64,000 nt of DNA. Origin: an uncultured Armatimonadetes bacterium. Lineage in GTDB: Bacteria; Armatimonadota; UBA5829; DTJY01. Each line of letters opens with the position of its first letter. Position 1 is the stretch's first letter. The position numbers and the translations under genes were made by a program. The stretch spans positions 1,216,001 through 1,280,000 of the forward strand of contig OY970325.1 in NCBI GenBank assembly GCA_963717145.1, in the 5' to 3' direction. Of this stretch, positions 9,064-19,538 are shown one piece after another. The notes under the pieces were generated by a model. That model saw nothing but the letters and a program-made list of their open reading frames with translations. It searched no databases and was not told where the DNA came from.

Positions 9064-12000
9064 ATGTCAGGGAAGGACCTGGTTCTTGGTATCGATGTTG
9101 GATCCGTGAGCGTCAATCTCGCTGTTTTGGCGAGAAACGGCGAGATCCTCGACACGACATATGTGAGACACAAGGGAAGGCCGATGCAGGTCACCGCCGA
9201 CGAGGTCGAAAAGATCTTGCATCAGTATGGCGACCGGATAACGGGCTGCGCAGCCACGGGCACGGGCGGTCGGTTGGTCGCCCGAATCTTCAACGGCATA
9301 TTTGTCAACGAGGTCATCGCGCAGGCCTCCGCCGCCGCATACCTCACCCCGGAGATCCGCACCGTCATAGAGATCGGCGGCGAGGACTCGAAGCTGATCT
9401 TCCTCAAGCCTTTGGAGTGCGGTGGCTCGACACCGCTTTCCAAGCTCGCTGACAGCGATATCGAGCGATCGCACTCCGAAAGCGGTGTCGAGCCACCGCA
9501 CTCCAAAGCGATCGCCGACTTCGAGATGAACACCGTCTGCGCGGCCGGCACCGGCTCATTCCTCGACCAGCAGGCGACCCGAATGGGCCTGAGCATCGAG
9601 GAGTTCGGCCAGCTCGCACTGAAGTCCGAGACGCCGCCGCGGGTCGCCGGGCGGTGCAGCGTCTTCGCCAAGAGCGACATGATCCATCTTCAGCAGAAGG
9701 CCACTCCCGTCCACGACATCGTCGCCGGGCTGTGCTTCGCGCTGGCCCGGAACTTCAAGAGCACCGTTGGCGCCGCGAAGCAGTTCGAGACGCCGATCGC
9801 CTTCCAGGGCGGAGTCGCGGCCAACCCGGGCATCGTCCGGGCGATGAAGAGCGTGCTCGGCCTCGAAGACGATGAACTCGTCATCCCGAAGGAGTTCGGC
9901 TGCACCGGCGCAATCGGCGCCGTACTGGTATCGCTGAGAGGAAACCTCCCGCAGCCCGACTTCGCCGCCGTAACCCAACTCAGATGCACTACGAGTCCGG
10001 GCCCTTCAGTGGCCGTGCTCTGCGATGGTTGCACATCCGGACTCCAGGGGGACAAGGAAGAGATTTCAGAGAAACCACTCAAGCTGGACAAGTCCGTCAT
10101 GCCTGCCGACAACTCCTGCGATCCACCCCCGACCGAGCGCATCCCCGCCTATCTCGGCGTCGACGTCGGCTCCATCAGTACCAACGTCGTCGTCATGGAT
10201 GCGCAGAAGCGCGTCCTCTCGAAGCGATACCTTCTGACTGCGAGCCGGCCGATCGAGGCCGTCAACCAGGGACTCAAGGAGGTCGGCGCGGAGGTCGGGC
10301 ATCTCGTCGACATCAGGGGCGCATGCACCACCGGCTCGGGCCGCTACCTCATCGCGGACTTCATCGGCGCGCGATGTCGTCAGGAACGAGATCACCGCTC
10401 AGGCGCGCGGCGCCGTCGAGATCGACCCGGAGGTGGACACCATCTTCGAGATCGGCGGCCAGGACTCCAAGTACATCAGCCTCAACAAGGGCGCGATCGT
10501 CGATTTCGAGATGAACAAGGTCTGCGCCGCCGGCACCGGCTCGTTCCTCGAGGAGCAGGCGGAGAAGCTTGGCATCAGCATCAAGGGCCAGTTCGGCGAC
10601 CTCGCCCTCAGTTCGGATGCGCCGGTAAACCTCGGGCGAGCGCTGCACCGTCTTCATGGAGACGGAGCTGGTCCGCCACCAGCAGGGCGGATCGGCGACT
10701 CGAGGACCTTGTCGCCGGTCTGAGCTACTCCATCGTGCGAAACTACCTCAACCGGGTCGTCGGCACCAAGCCGGTCGGGAACAAGATCTTCTTCCAGGGC
10801 GGAGCGCCGCCAACAAGGGCGTCGTGGCCGCGTTCGAGATGGTGACCGGCAAGCCGATCATCGTCCCGAAGCACCACGAGGTCACCGGCGCGCTCGGCTG
10901 CGCATGCCTCGCGATGGAAGCCGATGCCGGCCAAGGCAGCAGGTTCAAGGGCTTCGACCTCAGCGACCGGCACTATGAGGTCTCCTCCTTCGAGTGCAAG
11001 GACTGCTCGAACCACTGCGAGATCAACCGGGTCATCGTCGAGGGCGAGAAGCCGCTCTTCTACGGCAGCCGCTGCGAGAAGTACGACGTGGACCGCCGTG
11101 CGAAGGAGAACGCCGCTCTTCCCGGACCACTTCGCCGAGCGCGAGGAGATGCTGCTCGGCGCCATACGCCCCGTCGGAAGCCGCATCGCCGCGGACGCGC
11201 CCGCGCATCGGCATCCCGCGGGCGCTGCTCTTCTACGAGCTTTACCCGTTCTGGCAGGCCTTCTTCACGGAGCTCGGCTGCGAGGTCGTCGTCTCGGACG
11301 CGACCACCAAGGCGATCATCCACAACGGCGCCGAGCGCTCGGTCTCGGAGACCTGCTTCCCGATGAAGGTCGCGCTCGGACACGTGCTCAACCTGCTGGA
11401 CAAGGAGATCGACTTCATCTTCCTCCCGAGCGTCATCAACATGTCGAAGCCCGACGAGCGCATGACCGACAGCTTCGTCTGCCCGTACGTGCAGAGCCTC
11501 GTCTACACGATCAAGTCTTCCATCGACTTCAATGCGGCCAGGGTGAAGGTGCTCCAGCCGGTGATCTATCTCCAGTTCGGCCGGAAGCACCGAATCAAGG
11601 CGCTCGAGGAGGTCGGAAAGGCCGTCGGACGGTCACGCAAGCGATGTGGCGCGCGCAGTCGAGGCCGCCGAGGCGCATCTGGAGCGCTTCCAGGAGAAGC
11701 TCATGGCGCGCGGTCGGGAGCTGCTTGCCGATGTCGGGCCCGACGAAAAGGCGATCGTCGTCATCAGCCGCGCCTACAATACGTGCGATCCCGGCGCGAA
11801 CCTGGAGATCCCCCACAAGCTCCGCAAGATGGGCGTGCGATGCATCCCGATGGACTTCCTGCCGCTCGATTCCGTCCGCCTGCCCGAGGACTGGACGAAC
11901 ATGTACTGGCGCTACGGCCAGAAGATCCTCTCCGCCGGCGAGATCGTCGCCGACGACCCGCGGCTCTTCCCGCTCTACCTGACCAACTTCGGCTGCGGCC

Positions 12001-13390
12001 CGGACTCGTTCGTCCACAAGTTCTTCCGCGAGCGACTCGGGATCAAGCCCTGCCTGGTGATCGAGGTCGACGAGCACAGCGCCGACGCCGGGATGATCAC
12101 CCGTTGCGAGGCCTTCCTGGACAGCCTCGAACACGCAAGTCGAGAAGGCCACCGGCGCGAGGCATTTCCGCCAGGTCGCCATCGATCATGGGACACATCG
12201 GACCGTCCTGATCCCGAACATGAGCGCCCACGCCTATGCCCTCGCCGCCGCCTTCGAGTCCTGCGGCATGAAGGCCGAGGTGCTCCCGACCTCGGACGAG
12301 GAGACCCTGGACTGGGGCCGCCAGTACACGACGGGCAAGGAGTGCTTCCCCTGCATCGTCACGACCGGCGACATGGTGAAGTTCACGAAGCGCCCGGACT
12401 TCGATCGCGACAAGTACGCCTTCTTCATGGGCGGATCGGGCGGGCCGTGCCGCTTCGGGCAATACAACGCCCTCCAGCGCATGGTTCTCGATGAACTGGG
12501 CTACCCCGACGTGCCCATCTATGCGCCGAACCAGGCGTCGAGCTTCTACAACGACATCGGCATCGTGGGCCGCAAGCTCCTGGAGCAGGGCTGGCAGGGA
12601 ATCGTCGCCATCGACATGCTGGAGAAAGGCCTCCGCGAGACGCGACCCTACGAGCTTGTGAAGGGCTCGACGGAGGATGCCTTCGAGCAGGGCGTCAGGA
12701 TCGTAAGCGATGCTATCGCGGGTGATTCCGATCTAGTCCCCGCGCTGAGGGAGTGCCGCAAGGTATTCGAGACAGTGCAGGTCGATCGTAGCGTTCAGCG
12801 GCCGATCATCGGCCTCGTCGGCGAGTTCTACGTCCGCGCCAACGCATTCAGCAACCAGGACGTCGTCCGCAAGATCGAGGAACTCGGCGGCGAGGTATGG
12901 GGCGCTCCGCTCCTGGAGTGGTTCCTCTATCGCAACGTCCGCCGCGCAAATGCGGGCGCGGCTCGCCGGCGACCTGAAGCTCTGGGTCAAGAATCGGGTC
13001 ATGGACTTGTTCATGAAGAAGCACGAGCACGATTTCGCTCACGTCTTCGACGGGTACCTGCGCAACTGCCACGAGCCGTCGAGCAACGAGGTTCTCGAGA
13101 TGGCCGAGCCGTATGTCCATCGGAGCTTCGAGGGCGAGGCGATCATGACTGTCGGCAAGGCGGTGGACTTCGTGAACAAGGGCCTCGCGGGGGTCGTCGC
13201 GGTGATGCCGTTCACCTGCATGCCGGGGACGATCTCGAATGCGCTCCTGAAGCGGGTCCGCGAGGAGATGGGCGAGTTCCCGTTCCTGAACATGGTCTAC
13301 GACGGCGTCGAGCAGGCCACGAGTCAGACGCGCATCGAGGCCTTCATGCACCAGGCGAAGGAGTACGCGAAGCGGCGCTCCAGCTCGTAG
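9064..13390 (+). CDS. CoA-substrate-specific enzyme activase (two BadF/BadG/BcrA/BcrD ATPase domains plus DUF2229-like domains), split by several frameshifts
   Basis: Two copies of GxDVGS, EIGG.DSK and CAAGTGSF; ETCFPMK, NFGCGPDS, KECFPC and PFTCMPG lie in successive frames. Confidence 0.85.
9410..9508. repeat. REP family C element inserted in frame in the activase CDS
   Basis: Perfect 31-bp arms at 9410-9440 and 9478-9508; 99 bp = 33 codons. Confidence 0.9.
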
Positions 13391-13456
13391 CTCGTTCAAC
13401 GGAATAAGGGCCGCCGTCGAGTTCGGCCTGTAGAGTTCTCCCCCTCTGCCGGAGAC

Positions 13457-13657
13457 CTAAGCGTCGGGTGCGGAGGGATGAAGGGCTCGTCTGTTTGTAC
13501 GGCCCTCGATGATCATGCCGCTAAGGTCCCGTGGGGACTTCGCGAGGATTCGGCGGGCTTCATCCACTGATACCGCATTGATTGCCAGTTCTGACCACTC
13601 CAGAGTGGGAAGAGCAACCTGTCCAGCTATGCTTTTCTTTCTAGTTGAGCCCATCAC
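13457..13657 (-). CDS. small hypothetical protein, possibly antitoxin-like
   Basis: 66-aa ORF ending ..EARRILAKSPRDLSGMIIEGR; no firm family match. Confidence 0.25.
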   Translation of the reverse strand: MMGSTRKKSIAGQVALPTLEWSELAINAVSVDEARRILAKSPRDLSGMIIEGRTNRRALHPSAPDA

Positions 13658-13684
13658 TAATCACCAGTTCGCAATCCATACGGC

Positions 13685-13708
13685 AAAAAGCCCGCCGGAG
13701 CGGGCTTT
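13685..13708 (-). terminator. intrinsic terminator of tRNA-Met
   Basis: AAAGCCCGC-TCCG-GCGGGCTTTTT directly after the CCA end. Confidence 0.8.
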
Positions 13709-13715
13709 CGTGAGA

Positions 13716-13792
13716 TGGTAGCGGAGGGCGGACTCGAACCGTCGACGCCACGGGTATGAGCCGTGTGCTCTAACCAACTGAGCTACTCCGCC
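13716..13792 (-). tRNA. tRNA-Met (CAT), elongator type
   Basis: GGCGGAGTAGCTCAGTTGGTTAGAGCACACGGCTCATACCCGTGGCGTCGACGGTTCGAGTCCGCCCTCCGCTACCA forms a cloverleaf with encoded CCA. Confidence 0.93.
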
Positions 13793-13804
13793 ATGACCAT
13801 TGTT

Positions 13805-13834
13805 ATTCTACCATCAAGGCGGGCCGTTCGTCAA
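13805..13834 (-). promoter_or_regulatory. sigma70 promoter of tRNA-Met
   Basis: TTGACG-18-TAGAAT with a TGn extension, ending 12 nt before the tRNA. Confidence 0.75.
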
Positions 13835-13839
13835 CACTT

Positions 13840-15201
13840 CGAATTGCTTCACGAACGATGTTACCGAAACGGAAACGTTGCCTCAGATAAGAATGTTACC
13901 GAAACTGAGGCATGGAGAAGATGACAACTGCATCCGTAAGAGAAGTCGTGAGGCGCAAACGCAAAGAATATGGCAAAGCCACCAAATCGGAGAAGAAGCT
14001 GGTATTGAGTGAAGTCCAGGGATTGACCGGTTACCACAGGAAGTCGCTGGTGAGGCTGTTCGCGAAAGGAGTTCCACCAGCGAGGAGTCCAGTGAGACGC
14101 GCAAGGAAGTCGAAATACGAGCCGATAGCCCACAAGCTGAAGACACTCTGGGCTGCGAGTTTCTACGCGTGCGGTAAGCGTCTGCAGCCGTTTCTGACTG
14201 AGTTTCTACCCATACTGGAGTCATTCGGGGAGATAACGGTTACACCAGAAGAAGAGAGGCTGCTTAACTCGATCAGCGCGTCGAGCATCGACAGGTTGAT
14301 GAAGAAGGAGCGGTCTGCCCTATCGCTAACAGGGAGGACCTTAACAAAGCCGGGGACACTGCTTCGGTCTCAGATCCCGGTGAGGACGTTTGCCGACTGG
14401 GATGAAGCTGAGCCTGGGTTCTTCGAGATGGACTTGGTGGGTCATTGCGGAGGTGACGGGAGCGGAGAGTTCCTGTATACTTTGACTATGACTGATGTAG
14501 CGACCGGATGGGTAGCGCTTGATGGAATGAAAGGCCGAGGGGAGCACGGAACCGTGCTTGCGGTGCAGTCCGCGTCCAAGAGCGCACCGTTTGCAGTCAG
14601 AGGCATAGATACCGACAACGGCGGCGAGTTCATCAACCATCACATGAACAAGTACTGTCGAGCGCACAGGATCACGTTTACGCGCAGTCGGCCTTACAAG
14701 AAGAACGATCAATGTCATGTAGAGCAGAAGAACTGGAGCGTAGTCCGGCAGTTTATAGGTTACCGGCGATTCGAGACGGACGAGCAGCTTGCGGTACTAA
14801 AGGCGATATATCCGCTGATCGTGGCGTATCACAACTTCTGTCAGCCCATGATGCGTCTTAAAGAAAAGGAGCGGATTGGGAGTAAAGTGATCAAACGCTA
14901 TGAGCCTGCGATGACGCCGTACCGCAAGCTGATAAGTGTTGAAGGATGGCTTGACGATGAAGCAAAGGATCGCCTCGATAAAGAACGTAGAGCGACGAAC
15001 CCGGTGGAGCTACTAAGACGCATCCACAGGCTATCATCAAAGCTTGACAGGATGCCGAACAAAGACAGATCGAAAGCGAGCAAGGCGCGGCCCTGAGCGG
15101 CGATCAAGAGCCGATCTGACATACTTGAACACACTACTTGGTAACATTATCAATGACGCAACGAATGGCGTTTCGGTAACAAAGTTAAATGAGGCAACAC
15201 G
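13840..15201 (+). mobile_element. insertion sequence, copy 1 (1362 bp), with 5-bp TSD CACTT
   Basis: Boundaries set by identity with copy 2; CACTT at 13835-13839 and 15202-15206; imperfect IRs with repeated TTGCyTCA..TGTTACC units. Confidence 0.9.
13912..15096 (+). CDS. DDE transposase (integrase core; IS481/ISNCY-like, family uncertain)
   Basis: FEMDLV...DTDNGGEF...FTRSRPYKKNDQCHVEQKN catalytic triad. Confidence 0.9.
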   Translation: MEKMTTASVREVVRRKRKEYGKATKSEKKLVLSEVQGLTGYHRKSLVRLFAKGVPPARSPVRRARKSKYEPIAHKLKTLWAASFYACGKRLQPFLTEFLPILESFGEITVTPEEERLLNSISASSIDRLMKKERSALSLTGRTLTKPGTLLRSQIPVRTFADWDEAEPGFFEMDLVGHCGGDGSGEFLYTLTMTDVATGWVALDGMKGRGEHGTVLAVQSASKSAPFAVRGIDTDNGGEFINHHMNKYCRAHRITFTRSRPYKKNDQCHVEQKNWSVVRQFIGYRRFETDEQLAVLKAIYPLIVAYHNFCQPMMRLKEKERIGSKVIKRYEPAMTPYRKLISVEGWLDDEAKDRLDKERRATNPVELLRRIHRLSSKLDRMPNKDRSKASKARP

Positions 15202-15207
15202 CACTTG

Positions 15208-15744
15208 TCAGTCAAACGACCCCGTCGGAACGTCTCGGAAGATCGGCAGGTACGTCCGCCAAGTCTCATTCCGAGCGCCATCGAGATACTTAGTCAGGCT
15301 GATGAACGGAACATATCTCGGCTTTCGAGGCTGCTTCATCAGGTGCATGTTGACTTTGTCGAGCGTCTTGTCGCCCTTCTTCGAGTTGCACTTCTTGCAG
15401 CAGCAGACAAGGTTCTCCCAGGTGGACGTTCCACCCAGCCGCTTCGGGGTCACATGGTCGATCGTCAGCTCCCTGGCCTGAAAGCCGCAGTACTGGCACA
15501 TATAGTTGTCACGCGCGAACACGCTCCGTCTGGAGAGACGAAGCTCCGGCAGGGGCCGCTTGACGTGATGCCTCAGCTTCACGACCGATGGCGGGTCGAT
15601 CGCACCGTCGAGCATGTGTATCACACCGTCGTTTGTGTGCAAGACCTCGGCCTTGCCCAGGAAGACCAGGACAATCGCTCGGCGGAGATTGCACACATTG
15701 AGCGGCTCGTAATCGTTATTCAGCACAAGTACCTCTTGGCTCAT
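15208..15744 (-). CDS. HNH endonuclease (COG1403 type)
   Basis: VLVLNNDYEPL, RDNYMCQYCG, TIDHVTPKRLGG and WENLVCCCKKCNSKKG motifs; GAGGAG RBS. Confidence 0.9.
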   Translation of the reverse strand: MSQEVLVLNNDYEPLNVCNLRRAIVLVFLGKAEVLHTNDGVIHMLDGAIDPPSVVKLRHHVKRPLPELRLSRRSVFARDNYMCQYCGFQARELTIDHVTPKRLGGTSTWENLVCCCKKCNSKKGDKTLDKVNMHLMKQPRKPRYVPFISLTKYLDGARNETWRTYLPIFRDVPTGSFD

Positions 15745-15792
15745 ATCAGATACCCGGTTCTCCTCTCTACGGCAATTCCAGGAACCGCTAAC

Positions 15793-15825
15793 AAAAAACC
15801 CGCTATGCCATATGGCACAAGCGGG
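15793..15825 (-). terminator. intrinsic terminator inside the HNH leader (attenuator)
   Basis: CCCGCT-TGTGCCATATGGCAT-AGCGGG-TTTTTT located about 50 nt upstream of the HNH start. Confidence 0.8.
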
Positions 15826-15895
15826 CTACGAACACACCAATACATTTGACGGTTGACGGAATCGGAACACACCATCCTCGGTCAGTCGTAGCCGA

Positions 15896-16018
15896 TTAGC
15901 GCTCAAGCCGTCGAGACAGTCGGCGGCCGGACAATCCGGCGCCATCTCGGCTTTGCGACTGGTCAGCGTATCGTACAGGTCGACAACTCTGCGCACGGGG
16001 GGCGACTCCCATCAACAT
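15896..16018 (-). CDS. candidate 40-aa leader peptide (uORF)
   Basis: MLMGVAPRAQSCRPVRYADQSQSRDGAGLSGRRLSRRLER*; 9 Arg codons, 5 of them CGA; starts 12 nt after the -10 box. Confidence 0.35.
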   Translation of the reverse strand: MLMGVAPRAQSCRPVRYADQSQSRDGAGLSGRRLSRRLER

Positions 16019-16030
16019 TTCTTCTTTCGT

Positions 16031-16059
16031 ATTATACCAAGATTCTCGCGACTAGTCAA
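16031..16059 (-). promoter_or_regulatory. consensus sigma70 promoter of the HNH leader
   Basis: TTGACT-17-TATAAT with a TGn extension. Confidence 0.8.
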
Positions 16060-16064
16060 CGCGC

Positions 16065-17426
16065 CGAATTGCTTCACGAACGATGTTACCGAAACGGAAA
16101 CGTTGCCTCAGATAAGAATGTTACCGAAACTGAGGCATGGAGAAGATGACAACTGCATCCGTAAGAGAAGTCGTGAGGCGCAAACGCAAAGAATATGGCA
16201 AAGCCACCAAATCGGAGAAGAAGCTGGTATTGAGTGAAGTCCAGGGATTGACCGGTTACCACAGGAAGTCGCTGGTGAGGCTGTTCGCGAAAGGAGTTCC
16301 ACCAGCGAGGAGTCCAGTGAGACGCGCAAGGAAGTCGAAATACGAGCCGATAGCCCACAAGCTGAAGACACTCTGGGCTGCGAGTTTCTACGCGTGCGGT
16401 AAGCGTCTGCAGCCGTTTCTGACTGAGTTTCTACCCATACTGGAGTCATTCGGGGAGATAACGGTTACACCAGAAGAAGAGAGGCTGCTTAACTCGATCA
16501 GCGCGTCGAGCATCGACAGGTTGATGAAGAAGGAGCGGTCTGCCCTATCGCTAACAGGGAGGACCTTAACAAAGCCGGGGACACTGCTTCGGTCTCAGAT
16601 CCCGGTGAGGACGTTTGCCGACTGGGATGAAGCTGAGCCTGGGTTCTTCGAGATGGACTTGGTGGGTCATTGCGGAGGTGACGGGAGCGGAGAGTTCCTG
16701 TATACTTTGACTATGACTGATGTAGCGACCGGATGGGTAGCGCTTGATGGAATGAAAGGCCGAGGGGAGCACGGAACCGTGCTTGCGGTGCAGTCCGCGT
16801 CCAAGAGCGCACCGTTTGCAGTCAGAGGCATAGATACCGACAACGGCGGCGAGTTCATCAACCATCACATGAACAAGTACTGTCGAGCGCACAGGATCAC
16901 GTTTACGCGCAGTCGGCCTTACAAGAAGAACGATCAATGTCATGTAGAGCAGAAGAACTGGAGCGTAGTCCGGCAGTTTATAGGTTACCGGCGATTCGAG
17001 ACGGACGAGCAGCTTGCGGTACTAAAGGCGATATATCCGCTGATCGTGGCGTATCACAACTTCTGTCAGCCCATGATGCGTCTTAAAGAAAAGGAGCGGA
17101 TTGGGAGTAAAGTGATCAAACGCTATGAGCCTGCGATGACGCCGTACCGCAAGCTGATAAGTGTTGAAGGATGGCTTGACGATGAAGCAAAGGATCGCCT
17201 CGATAAAGAACGTAGAGCGACGAACCCGGTGGAGCTACTAAGACGCATCCACAGGCTATCATCAAAGCTTGACAGGATGCCGAATAAAGACAGATCGAAA
17301 GCGAGCAAGGCGCGGCCCTGAGCGGCGATCAAGAGCCGATCTGACATACTTGAACACACTACTTGGTAACATTATCAATGACGCAACGAATGGCGTTTCG
17401 GTAACAAAGTTAAATGAGGCAACACG
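16065..17426 (+). mobile_element. insertion sequence, copy 2 (1362 bp), no matching TSD
   Basis: Offset 2225 from copy 1; one synonymous difference seen (AAC 15058-60 vs AAT 17283-85); flanks CGCGC and CCCGG. Confidence 0.9.
16137..17321 (+). CDS. DDE transposase, same protein sequence as copy 1
   Basis: 394-aa translation identical to 13912..15096. Confidence 0.9.
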   Translation: MEKMTTASVREVVRRKRKEYGKATKSEKKLVLSEVQGLTGYHRKSLVRLFAKGVPPARSPVRRARKSKYEPIAHKLKTLWAASFYACGKRLQPFLTEFLPILESFGEITVTPEEERLLNSISASSIDRLMKKERSALSLTGRTLTKPGTLLRSQIPVRTFADWDEAEPGFFEMDLVGHCGGDGSGEFLYTLTMTDVATGWVALDGMKGRGEHGTVLAVQSASKSAPFAVRGIDTDNGGEFINHHMNKYCRAHRITFTRSRPYKKNDQCHVEQKNWSVVRQFIGYRRFETDEQLAVLKAIYPLIVAYHNFCQPMMRLKEKERIGSKVIKRYEPAMTPYRKLISVEGWLDDEAKDRLDKERRATNPVELLRRIHRLSSKLDRMPNKDRSKASKARP

Positions 17427-17500
17427 CCCGGAACCATGAGGCCGGGAACACCGTAGTACCAAGCGGGAGTCTACTCTATGTGAGTGGTCTGAGCGCACAC

Positions 17501-17590
17501 GGCCCCGGAGCATGTCCTTGACATGCTCGGGGGCCGCGAGAGCGGCGGGAGGGCATGTCCTTGACATGCTCGGGGGCGACTTCGTATACT
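17501..17590 (+). promoter_or_regulatory. tandem palindromes overlapping the putative promoter of the ABC operon
   Basis: GCATGTC-CTT-GACATGC occurs twice; the second TTGACA (17561) lies 18 bp from TATACT (17585). Confidence 0.55.
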
Positions 17591-17628
17591 TAGGCGTCGC
17601 AGCGGAAGCTGCTTTTTTTGCGCCTGTC

Positions 17629-17807
17629 CCGTAGGGGAGGCCTTCAACGGCCTCCTTCGCGGGCGACCGTTGAAGGTCGCCCCTACGGCTTGCGGACAAG
17701 GGCGACCGTTTGAGGTCGCCCCTACGGGCTACTGGAGGCGGGCGACCGTTGAAGGTCGCCCCTACGGCTTACCGGAGACGGACGGCCATTCAGGGCCGCC
17801 CATACAG
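17629..17807. repeat. cluster of GTAG-type REP family B units (GGGCGACCGTTGAAGGTCGCCCCTACGG)
   Basis: Three near-identical direct units plus degenerate copies; same family at 24011 and 28261. Confidence 0.85.
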
Positions 17808-17835
17808 CTTGTGAGCAACTCGGAGGTACCCACGC

Positions 17836-18765
17836 ATGGGAACTGCAATCCAGATAGACGGTCTCACCAAGACCTTTCGCTTGCTGATGCAGAAGACACC
17901 CGTAAAGGCGGTCGATGACCTGAACCTCGAGGTCCATCAGGGTGAGATCTTCGGCTTCCTCGGGCCCAACGGAGCGGGCAAGACTACCACGATCAAGATG
18001 CTCCTGGGCATCATCTTCCCCACATCCGGTTCCGCCCACATCCTGGGAAAGCCGGCGGGCGACATCGAGACCAAGAAGCACATCAGCTACCTGCCCGAAA
18101 GCCCTTATTTCTACGAACATATGTCGGGCCAGGAGCTTCTCGATTTCTACGGGCGCATCTTCGGCCTCTCTCATTCGGTAAGGCAGCAGAAGATCGAGGA
18201 TCTGCTCAGGACCGTCGGGCTGTACGCAGACAAAACCAAGCCGTTGAGCCAGTACTCGAAGGGGATGCTGCAGAGGATCGGCATCGCTCAGGCGCTGATC
18301 AACGATCCCCAGGTTCTGATATTCGATGAGCCGACTTCAGGCCTCGATCCGATCGCTCACATGGACATCCGCGATCTGATCCTCGATCTGAAGGCTCAGG
18401 GGAAGACCGTATTCCTCAGTTCACACCAGCTATCCGATGTCGAGATGGTCTGCGACCGAGTATCGATCCTGAACCGAGGCAAGCTGCTGAAAGTTGGCAG
18501 TCTGTGCGACCTGCTCGCAGGCGGTAAGGTTGAGATCACAGCTACGGGACTCGATGACTCGGCGGTAAAGAGGCTGGAGTCATGCTGTGCGGCCCTGGAA
18601 TACCGAAACGACTGCATTGTCATCCTGCAGCCGGAGGGGCCGACGGTCAATGAGACGATCGACGCCATCAGGTCGGCAGGCGGACACATAATATCAGTTG
18701 TCCCTCTGAAGAGAACGCTGGAGGACCTTTTCGTCGAAGTCATCCGGGAGGGCAACAAGCAGTGA
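17836..18765 (+). CDS. ABC transporter ATP-binding protein
   Basis: GPNGAGKTT, YSKGMLQR and IFDEPT motifs. Confidence 0.92.
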   Translation: MGTAIQIDGLTKTFRLLMQKTPVKAVDDLNLEVHQGEIFGFLGPNGAGKTTTIKMLLGIIFPTSGSAHILGKPAGDIETKKHISYLPESPYFYEHMSGQELLDFYGRIFGLSHSVRQQKIEDLLRTVGLYADKTKPLSQYSKGMLQRIGIAQALINDPQVLIFDEPTSGLDPIAHMDIRDLILDLKAQGKTVFLSSHQLSDVEMVCDRVSILNRGKLLKVGSLCDLLAGGKVEITATGLDDSAVKRLESCCAALEYRNDCIVILQPEGPTVNETIDAIRSAGGHIISVVPLKRTLEDLFVEVIREGNKQ

Positions 18766-19538
18766 ACATACTCGTTATCGCTAAGACCACATTCAACGAA
18801 GCTCTGAGGAAGAAGATCATCAACGTCTTCCTGCTGGTTGCGCTGGCGCTCATCGTCTTCTCCGTATCATTCACGTACTTCAGCGCGAGGCAGGAGATGA
18901 CCATCATCAAGAGCCTCGGACTCGGGATCATCGCCATCGCAGGGATGTTCATCAGTGTCGTACTCGGCATAAACCTGATTCCCGCCGAGATCGAGAAGCG
19001 AACGATCTACACGATCCTCGCGAAACCAGTCAAGCGTCATGAGTTCCTGCTCGGGAAATTCCTTGGCGGGACTCTCACGATGCTGCTGAATCTCGTGCTG
19101 ATGACGTTCGTGTTCATGCTCACAGTCGCCTACAAGAGCAACTGGGTACCGGACTGGGCGCTCCTCAAGGGCAGTCTCATGATCTTCTTTCAGTTGTTCC
19201 TGCTCGGCTCGGTGGCGGTCTTCTTCTCGATCTTCACGACACCGGCTGTCAACTTCTTCATGACATCGGCAGTGTATATCATCGGCAGCCTGTCGGATGT
19301 CACACAGGCCATGATGAGGAGTCAGAATGCCAATCCCATAGCAAAAGGCTTCTACTGGCTGATGCACTACCTCGTGCCGAATTTCGCCAACTTCTTCACG
19401 CAGAACCCGCTGATCAACCCGGGAGTGGTGATCAAGAACGAGGCGGTCTACTATGCCGAGAACATCCTCTACGCGCTGATCTACGTGTCGGTCCTGATGA
19501 TCATCGCGATTCTGGTGTTCGACAAGCGGGAAGTATGA
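18762..19538 (+). CDS. ABC-2 type permease
   Basis: Hydrophobic segments; EIEKRTIYTILAKPV motif. Confidence 0.88.
   Translation: MNILVIAKTTFNEALRKKIINVFLLVALALIVFSVSFTYFSARQEMTIIKSLGLGIIAIAGMFISVVLGINLIPAEIEKRTIYTILAKPVKRHEFLLGKFLGGTLTMLLNLVLMTFVFMLTVAYKSNWVPDWALLKGSLMIFFQLFLLGSVAVFFSIFTTPAVNFFMTSAVYIIGSLSDVTQAMMRSQNANPIAKGFYWLMHYLVPNFANFFTQNPLINPGVVIKNEAVYYAENILYALIYVSVLMIIAILVFDKREV

Follow-up and report, generated by a model that had tools for sequence, protein, structure and literature searches.

Two plus-strand copies of a 1362-bp insertion sequence (IS), at positions 13840-15201 and 16065-17426, were analysed in a 64,000-nucleotide stretch (hereafter, the window) of contig OY970325.1, positions 1,216,001 to 1,280,000, from an uncultured Armatimonadetes bacterium (assembly GCA_963717145.1). 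The element is a real and active insertion sequence. It integrates by a 5-bp staggered cut in the 5 bp directly upstream of the -35 box of sigma-A (sigma-70-type) promoters, with its left end always toward the promoter and its transposase gene divergent from the host gene. Because insertion is oriented and fixed just upstream of the -35 box, the core promoter is kept whole, coding sequence is spared, and the IS multiplies without breaking genes. The targeting is read directly from the flanks of all copies; that RNA polymerase guides it is a further step, which we infer and consider somewhat more probable than all the other explanations weighed below.

Two insertion sequence copies beside host promoters

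The host, described as a soil-type bacterium, has a genome consisting of a single 5.37-Mb contig with 60.6% guanine plus cytosine (GC); coordinates on this contig are prefixed C1 below. Both copies in the window have the same left-flank geometry, GTCAA-N5-IS, at 13829-13839 and 16054-16064, exactly as the original prediction (drawn from these two sites) had described it. Read on the minus strand, each flank is a complete promoter pointing away from the IS, TTGACG-18-TAGAAT for tRNA-Met and TTGACT-17-TATAAT for an HNH endonuclease-domain gene, and the pentamer CACTT, named beforehand as the duplicated target of copy 1, was indeed found on both sides of that copy. Copy 1 sits between the tRNA-Met promoter and the 3' end of the HNH gene, and copy 2 just upstream of the HNH promoter, so that the HNH gene faces the right end of copy 1 with its 3' end and the left end of copy 2 with its promoter. 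The features of the two sites are as follows.

13716-13792, minus strand: tRNA-Met gene (ARAGORN; Rfam tRNA, 60.7 bits), whose promoter flanks copy 1
13805-13810, minus strand: -10 box TAGAAT of the tRNA-Met promoter, host DNA (5/6 match, spacer 18)
13829-13834, minus strand: -35 box TTGACG of the tRNA-Met promoter, host DNA (read from the sequence and scored)
13835-13839, no strand: left target-site duplication CACTT of copy 1
13840-15201, plus strand: IS copy 1 (ends located by sequence), one of 22 copies with at least 99.85% identity
13840-13872, plus strand: left terminal repeat of copy 1, CGAA-TTGCTT-CA and then TGTTACCGAAAC
13876-13905, plus strand: inner left repeat of copy 1, CGTTGCCTCA...TGTTACCGAAAC, presumed second transposase binding site
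13912-15096, plus strand: transposase gene of copy 1, an open reading frame (ORF) of 394 amino acids (aa), rve-type DDE
15167-15201, plus strand: right terminal repeat of copy 1, ...GAGGCAACACG
15202-15206, no strand: right target-site duplication CACTT of copy 1
15208-15744, minus strand: HNH endonuclease-domain gene, ORF of 178 aa (Pfam HNH_5 and HNH)
16031-16036, minus strand: -10 box TATAAT of the HNH promoter, host DNA (spacer 17)
16054-16059, minus strand: -35 box TTGACT of the HNH promoter, host DNA (read from the sequence and scored)
16060-16064, no strand: CGCGC, the 5 bp between the -35 box and copy 2, with no right-side duplicate (17427-17431 reads CCCGG)
16065-17426, plus strand: IS copy 2, 1362 bp, one single-nucleotide polymorphism (SNP) relative to copy 1
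16137-17321, plus strand: transposase gene of copy 2, ORF of 394 aa

The left ends, CGAATTGCTTCA, begin at 13840 and 16065, and the right ends, ...GAGGCAACACG, finish at 15201 and 17426; together they form imperfect inverted repeats (CGAATTGCTTCA... and ...TGAGGCAACACG). A second, inner motif is present at each end, CGTTGC(C/G)TCA followed by TGTTACC, which is extended to TGTTACCGAAAC at the left end only. Given this inner copy, there are probably two transposase binding sites at each end of the element.

Targeting across the 22 genomic copies

The genome holds 22 full-length copies of the IS with 99.85-100% identity. They differ by at most two SNPs (one of which, at IS position 1346, is common to copies C1:2240983, C1:2674755 and C1:4728348), and the transposase ORF is intact in all 22. 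All copies were oriented and flank positions were read outward from the left end. In every copy, 5 bp separated the left end from a -35-like hexamer; a -10 box followed after another 16-19 bp, and the promoter was directed away from the IS. Base counts at left-flank positions 6-10 were T21, T17, G19, A13 and C17; right flanks of the 22 copies displayed no positional signal.

Copies were compared with 200,000 random genomic positions. A -35 match of at least 4/6 at the fixed place was observed in 16/22 copies, as against 2.9% of random positions, and a -10 match of at least 5/6 with a spacer of 16-19 bp in 17/22, as against 0.3%. The two occurred together in 13/22 copies and in 0.014% of random positions. 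With the -10 threshold lowered to 4/6, all 22 copies qualified, and 12 of them carried a TGn extended -10. The reservation attached to the original prediction, that chance could not be excluded with two sites, therefore no longer holds: the 22 copies lie far above the random genomic background.

Perfect 5-bp duplications flush with the IS tips were present in 17/22 copies, with a single mismatch in one further copy and no duplication in four. Together with the orientation and offset seen in all 22 copies and with 96 sites occupied by relatives (see below), this bears out the predicted oriented insertion 5 bp upstream of a -35 box that leaves the promoter unbroken.

Downstream of the 22 promoters we found 19 co-directional ORFs, whose starts lie 31-320 bp from the IS end, as well as tRNA-Met, tRNA-Ala (beginning 49 bp from the IS end) and, at one site, nothing. 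Pfam searches with 17 of the downstream products matched 14 to unrelated families, including L31, glutamate dehydrogenase, PEPCK, phosphoglycerate mutase, 2-oxoacid dehydrogenase E2 acyltransferase, isocitrate/isopropylmalate dehydrogenase, MFS transporter and HAD hydrolase, among others. The idea of a safe-harbour strategy, also part of the original prediction, is plausible in that the genes downstream are intact housekeeping genes and tRNAs. For genome annotation, this habit explains how copies of this IS pile up in intergenic regions without turning any gene into a pseudogene. It also carries a warning, as at occupied promoters the IS has pushed away all DNA beyond about -37, UP elements and activator sites included.

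Insertion-free sites in a related genome

The HNH gene is conserved in 11/11 genomes of the taxonomic family, the closest of which is G363 (91% protein identity). Its segment runs uninterrupted from the counterpart of the copy 2 right flank through the HNH gene to tRNA-Met, and it is free of the IS at both window sites. Both promoters are nevertheless present there, reading on the plus strand as GTCAA with ATTGTA (tRNA-Met) and GTCAA with ATTATA (HNH); the tRNA-Met -10 box in this IS-free allele is accordingly TACAAT, where the window has TAGAAT. The claim that the -35 box is host DNA thus stands, and the check proposed with it, whether empty sites would show GTCAA to belong to the element, did not go against it.

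A mobile outward-facing promoter carried by the element would account for the boxes accompanying the left end in every case. We regard this explanation as having practically no chance of being correct, and it was rejected on the strength of the empty sites in G363; moreover, the spacers and the 5-bp segments between boxes and IS vary from copy to copy, and the 5-bp duplications are located between the boxes and the IS tip. Taken together, the empty sites, the duplications and the unrelated spacers identify the boxes as pre-existing host promoters.

The same comparison bears on copy 2, which lacks a duplication. Its flanks are syntenic with G363, albeit diverged in local sequence, and this synteny rules out rearrangement as the cause of the missing duplication.

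The same geometry in relatives of the element

Metagenomic homologues of the transposase number in the thousands (E ≤ 0.001 for 7966 of 8000 scored candidates), and the few named ones are labelled Armatimonadota. Of 401 genomes sampled from the phylum, 22 contain it. Genome and metagenome collections were scanned as well and yielded 160 loci with roughly 39-82% identity, spanning Armatimonadota, Chloroflexota, Acidobacteriota, Spirochaetia, Actinomycetota, candidate phyla and others. At their ends, relatives share the consensus CGnn-TTG(C/A)CTCA, and an inner repeat lies about 34 bp inward. Paired end motifs 30-40 bp apart were located in 126/190 loci, 120 of which begin with CG. Removal of four own-genome loci and of those with less than 45 bp of flank left 98 sites, 96 of them distinct, from relatives with 38-66% identity in several phyla.

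Across these 96 sites, positions 6-10 read T69, T58, G62, A51 and C54, and positions 29-34 read T59, A64, A36/T35, A53, A46 and T64, which corresponds to TATAAT at spacer 17 after TTGAC. A match to TTGACA of at least 5/6 was observed at offset 5 in 40/96 sites, compared to 0-2 sites at each of 20 other offsets (1/96 at offset 6 and 0/96 at offset 4). Similarly, a -10 match of at least 5/6 was seen at offset 5 in 50/96 sites, and in 0-3 at offsets of 15 or more. Right flanks of the relatives gave 0/32 for TTGACA and 1/32 for the -10 box at the same thresholds. The comparison of left flanks proposed in the original prediction, namely TTGAC at a fixed 5-bp offset with a -10 box beyond, therefore came out in its favour both in the 22 copies and in the relatives.

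One sub-lineage departs from the standard spacing. In Flexilinea flocculi TC1 (G404; loci L243, L248, L253, L258, L262 and L266) the IS measures about 1510 bp, has the ends CGACGTGAATCA and is flanked by a 4-bp duplication. No boxes are found at the standard place, and a TATAAT-like hexamer (at least 5/6) is located 38-39 bp from the left end in 6/6 copies, versus 29 bp elsewhere. Judging from these flanks, insertion in this sub-lineage would lie some 9-10 bp further upstream, which is one helical turn and the same face of the DNA.

More distant relatives (35-43% identity) are found on plasmids, annotated as 'ISNCY family transposase' or 'DDE-type integrase'. Promoter geometry was plausible by eye in 2-3 of 4 copies on a Mycobacterium riyadhense plasmid. 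Those on the Sinorhizobium sp. plasmid NZ_CP023065.1 (L293, L294, L298, L302, L305, L308 and L310) are longer, at 469-543 aa; in four of them the left flank is identical and adjoins an IS110-family transposase gene, and three others have a second, similar flank in common.

What guides the insertion

In the explanation that we favour, the transpososome would not simply read TTGAC but would dock on RNA polymerase holoenzyme bound at the promoter. Docking would take place where the -35 box has its upstream edge, with sigma region 4, the beta-flap or the alpha subunits as the likeliest neighbours. Three lines of evidence argue for the promoter as seen by polymerase over the TTGAC word. Firstly, 28/96 of the relatives' sites combine a -35 match of 3/6 or less with a -10 match of at least 5/6, at the spacer-17 position in 21 of the 28. 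Secondly, a good -10 box accompanies 8/9 IS copies with exact TTGAC, compared to 16.4% of 1443 non-coding TTGAC sites in the host genome (binomial tail 4e-6), non-coding being defined here by a crude coding mask (ORFs of at least 100 aa with third-position GC, GC3, of at least 0.65) under which about 86% of the genome is coding; 9/13 IS copies without exact TTGAC also have a good -10. Thirdly, the strength of the boxes depends on the host, as seen, also among elements with the same ends, when multi-copy sets were compared in five other genomes. In two Chloroflexia genomes, a -35 match of at least 4/6 was present in 0/6 and 1/6 copies and a -10 match of at least 5/6 in 5/6 and 5/6, while an Acidobacteriota genome had TTGAC[AT] in 4/5 copies with weak -10 boxes of the TAnnGT type, and a Spirochaetia genome had a -35 match of at least 4/6 in 3/4 copies. 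The shifted TATAAT-like box of Flexilinea flocculi, a promoter hit twice at one base and an insertion at the transposase promoter of an IS66-like element (the last two described below) also speak for polymerase guidance. The original prediction had offered recognition of either TTGAC or promoter-bound polymerase; the polymerase half is the one that these data favour.

Five Bacteroidota/FCB genomes, with only one or two copies each, showed no clear flank motif; Bacteroidota promoters have the motif TAnnTTTG. A predicted complex of the transposase with sigma-A region 4 (residues 296-377) scored 0.02 against a mark of 0.32, which counts neither for nor against binding.

Besides the crudeness of the coding mask, several observations weigh against polymerase-guided insertion or against its generality. 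Neither box was recognised in 12/96 of the relatives' sites, and in 7/96 a -35 box was present with a -10 match of 3/6 or less. The 64/190 loci without the paired end motif, among them truncated contigs and types with a variant inner repeat, were left out of the sample. Four of the host's own copies (C1:905202, C1:1232065, which is the window copy at 16065, C1:1424173 and C1:2240983) have no duplication. GTGCT flanks 905202 on the left and 1424173 on the right, consistent with an inversion through recombination of inverted copies; no other pair among the four fits such a reciprocal flank swap. Longer alpha-proteobacterial 'ISNCY' relatives on Sinorhizobium and Mesorhizobium plasmids showed promoter geometry in 0/11 copies. 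The trait is therefore limited to a clade, and a different, sequence-specific target is suggested for the longer Sinorhizobium relatives. Contact between transposase and polymerase is itself something we infer from sequence patterns. Finally, the IS termini hold a -35-like hexamer of their own, CGnn-TTG(C/A)CT-CA (literally TTGACT in some relatives), situated 4 bp from the IS tip, where it roughly mirrors the target TTGAC at 5 bp.

Owing to this mirrored hexamer, the end-binding domain could read the target TTGAC directly. A helix-turn-helix that normally binds TTG(C/A)CTCA at the ends would then bind TTGAC in the target and cut 5 bp away, with polymerase uninvolved. Elements targeting sequences that resemble their own ends are known, IS30 and some IS3-family members among them. 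The termini are conserved as CGnn-TTGCCT/TTGACT-CA in 120/126 loci with a defined end, TTGAC of the target is found at almost the same distance from the junction and in mirror orientation, and TTG comprises the best-conserved target positions (21, 17 and 19 of 22 here; 69, 58 and 62 of 96 in relatives). However, direct reading leaves unexplained why 46/96 of the relatives' sites have a -35 match of 3/6 or less, 28 of which keep the -10 box at a fixed distance, and why the Chloroflexia sets share CGAATTGCCTCA ends and yet have so few recognisable -35 boxes. Nothing resembling TATAAT is found at the matching position of the IS ends, and the excess of -10 boxes over the non-coding TTGAC background is likewise at odds with a word of five bases being read by itself. 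We consider direct reading unlikely, although it is the strongest of the competing explanations.

Alternatively, the element could sense some other property of an active promoter, such as DNA bent or under-wound directly upstream of an open complex, negative supercoiling driven by transcription, or another promoter-bound host factor. Geometry tied to the whole promoter and not to one box would fit this, as would a sub-lineage shifted by about one helical turn and the fact that the occupied promoters belong mostly to housekeeping genes and tRNAs. Single-base precision (40 sites at offset 5, one at offset 6 and none at offset 4) is, however, hard to obtain from a diffuse structural cue, and we rate this possibility slightly lower still.

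Survivorship was also considered, whereby insertion is random or weakly biased, genic copies are lost and copies upstream of promoters are tolerated. With some 86% of the genome coding by the same mask, most random insertions would be harmful. Selection, however, cannot yield one base offset and one orientation in 22/22 copies and 96 sites. Insertions at non-coding TTGAC sites that lack a -10 box ought to be tolerated just as well, but such sites are unused, and copies differing by at most two SNPs have had little time for purging. Pure survivorship was rejected on the basis of the fixed offset in the 96-site sample and the TTGAC background control, and we regard it as very improbable.

Transposase family and comparison with known systems

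Pfam detected only rve in the transposase (38.2 bits); residues 1-165 gave no Pfam family at E ≤ 10, and the C-terminal 84 aa gave only a chance-level match to SKA2. The best curated profile was NCBIfam IS481 (NF033577), with 46.4 bits versus a cut-off of 224. An AlphaFold2 model (mean predicted local distance difference test, pLDDT, of 79) had helices in its N-terminal region (1-136), followed by a disordered linker, the RNase H core (170-310), a short beta element and more helices at the C terminus, and the best matches in a PDB profile search and in Foldseek were retroviral integrases, followed by TnsB and IstA. The putative catalytic glutamate, E271, is assigned from invariant columns and the rve alignment; in the segment E271-Q-K-N-W-S-V-V-R279 it is followed by V at +7 and an invariant R at +8.

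The element resembles the IS481 family in its rve core, single ORF, size (about 1-1.4 kb in that family) and short duplication, but falls short of the profile cut-off, and its plasmid relatives at 35-40% identity are labelled by NCBI as 'ISNCY' (not classified). The ISLbi1 group of ISNCY in ISfinder comprises elements of 1.4-1.5 kb with a 5-bp duplication. Eight Leptospira records were among the transposase matches.

The retrotransposon Ty3 of yeast has an integrase that is guided by TFIIIB/TFIIIC to insert at Pol III start sites, and this contact has been demonstrated. The present element is similar in that an enzyme of retroviral-integrase fold acts at a fixed base position set by the transcription initiation machinery. 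It differs in that Ty3 is a eukaryotic long terminal repeat (LTR) retroelement relying on Pol III factors, whereas the contact here, with bacterial polymerase, is a proposal. If it is true, the IS would do in bacteria what Ty3 does with TFIIIB.

Promoter-directed transposition in bacteria is in print for one superfamily, the Mutator-like TnGBS, ISLre2 and ISKra4 elements. According to Guerillot et al. (2014, PMC3942029, where Brochet et al. 2009 is cited), TnGBS, ISLre2 and several ISKra4-group elements, all Mutator-like, are found in one fixed orientation at 13-17 bp upstream of sigma-A promoters. The same paper calls promoter specificity unusual among prokaryotic transposases and, with Ty3 as its analogy, models it as contact with the initiation complex of polymerase. 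The present IS is alike in its oriented insertion at a fixed short distance upstream of a sigma-A -35 box and in having a DDE transposase. It is unlike them in two respects. Their transposases are Mutator-like (p-MULT 3/4), whereas the one described here is rve/retroviral-integrase-like and lies outside the Mutator-like group; and their distance, measured between the inverted-repeat end and the -35 box, is 13-17 bp, compared to 5 bp here, with only the Flexilinea variant implying about 14-15 bp. The studied genome holds promoter-homing elements of both kinds, the rve-type IS and an ISKra4-like element.

Among rve/TnsB-like enzymes, the nearest geometric parallel in the literature at hand is the ISAjo2 type of the IS1202 family. 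In Harmer, Pong and Hall (2023, PMC10132070), these elements are reported to insert exactly 5 bp from the XerC site of dif/pdif with a 5-bp duplication, and the authors suggest that a DNA-bound host protein guides the transposase. By that account, the two share an rve/TnsB-like DDE transposase, a compact element (about 1.4-1.5 kb in their case), a single orientation, a 5-bp duplication and a position 5 bp from the site of a host protein. The targets differ, however, theirs being the XerC side of dif/pdif and ours promoters. Other IS1202 features described there are likewise absent: the ends are CGAATTG... and ...CAACACG (CG...CG) instead of TGT...ACA, residue E+7 is V instead of Q, and the transposase is 394 aa long compared to 441-457 aa for the ISAjo2 type.

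No report of an rve-type IS homing to promoters was found in the literature searched, subscription journals being mostly outside its coverage. Against that literature, promoter homing by an unrelated rve-type family with a different spacing is new. That a second, unrelated enzyme family has the same habit argues for convergence, on more than one occasion, upon the upstream edge of a polymerase-bound promoter as a general safe haven. More broadly, we see about even odds that a widespread rve-type family uses promoter-bound RNA polymerase holoenzyme as its target-selection cofactor, independently of TnGBS/ISKra4, with sub-lineages that would dock one helical turn apart (5 versus about 14-15 bp from the -35 box).

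With a single protein and 1.36 kb of DNA, the element offers a compact system for asking how a transposase reads the transcription machinery. Owing to the base-exact geometry, the flanks of the family give promoter positions and host-specific -35/-10 preferences in phyla without genetics. If the proposed polymerase guidance is true, the family's insertion sites would be natural single-base promoter markers in uncultured phyla (Armatimonadota, Chloroflexota, Acidobacteriota, candidate phyla).

Promoters occupied more than once

Several occupied promoters outside the window have been hit repeatedly or carry other mobile elements. A 14-bp solo remnant of a related IS left end (CGAATTGCCTCACG) directly follows the duplication of copy C1:751274 (approximately C1:751255-751273); one promoter has therefore been hit twice at the same base.

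Right flanks of C1:2240983 and C1:2674755 (the latter at C1:2676117-2676180) are identical over 60 bp, consisting of 17 bp and the end of an ISKra4-like element. At C1:2674755, the promoter is that of glutamate dehydrogenase; its -35 box is 17 bp away from the ISKra4-like end and 5 bp away from the studied IS, which has inserted in between. Here one promoter carries a stack of two unrelated promoter-seeking elements.

An IS66-like element is also present in the genome, with at least 15 near-identical copies (C1:4726748-4728347 and C1:4940842-4942308 among them); it is about 1467 bp long and encodes a transposase of 452 aa. One copy of the studied IS and a diverged relative both abut the GTAACAG terminus of this element, at its own transposase promoter, for which the terminus acts as a -35 box. 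The diverged relative is 7 bp from the terminus and has TTGTAA at the 5-bp position. It is full-length (C1:4942316-4943677), shares 74-79% identity with the IS and has the end CGAATTGCCTCACC.

Other features of the window

The HNH gene and tRNA-Met are adjacent in most genomes of the taxonomic family. Between the HNH promoter and the start codon lies a leader of about 280 nt (15745-16030), which aligns with G363 at approximately 77%; a short patch of it is also conserved in the family's more distant members. An Rfam scan of window positions 12000-19000 returned the tRNA and one sub-threshold small RNA match only, with no known RNA in the HNH leader.

To the right of copy 2, an ABC-type ATPase gene with the Walker A motif GPNGAGKTT starts at 17837. 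Upstream of it, at 17500-17800, there are two kinds of short tandem hairpin-forming repeats, GCATGTCCTTGACATGCTCGGGGG in two copies and GGGCGACCGTTGAAGGTCGCCCCTACGG in about four.

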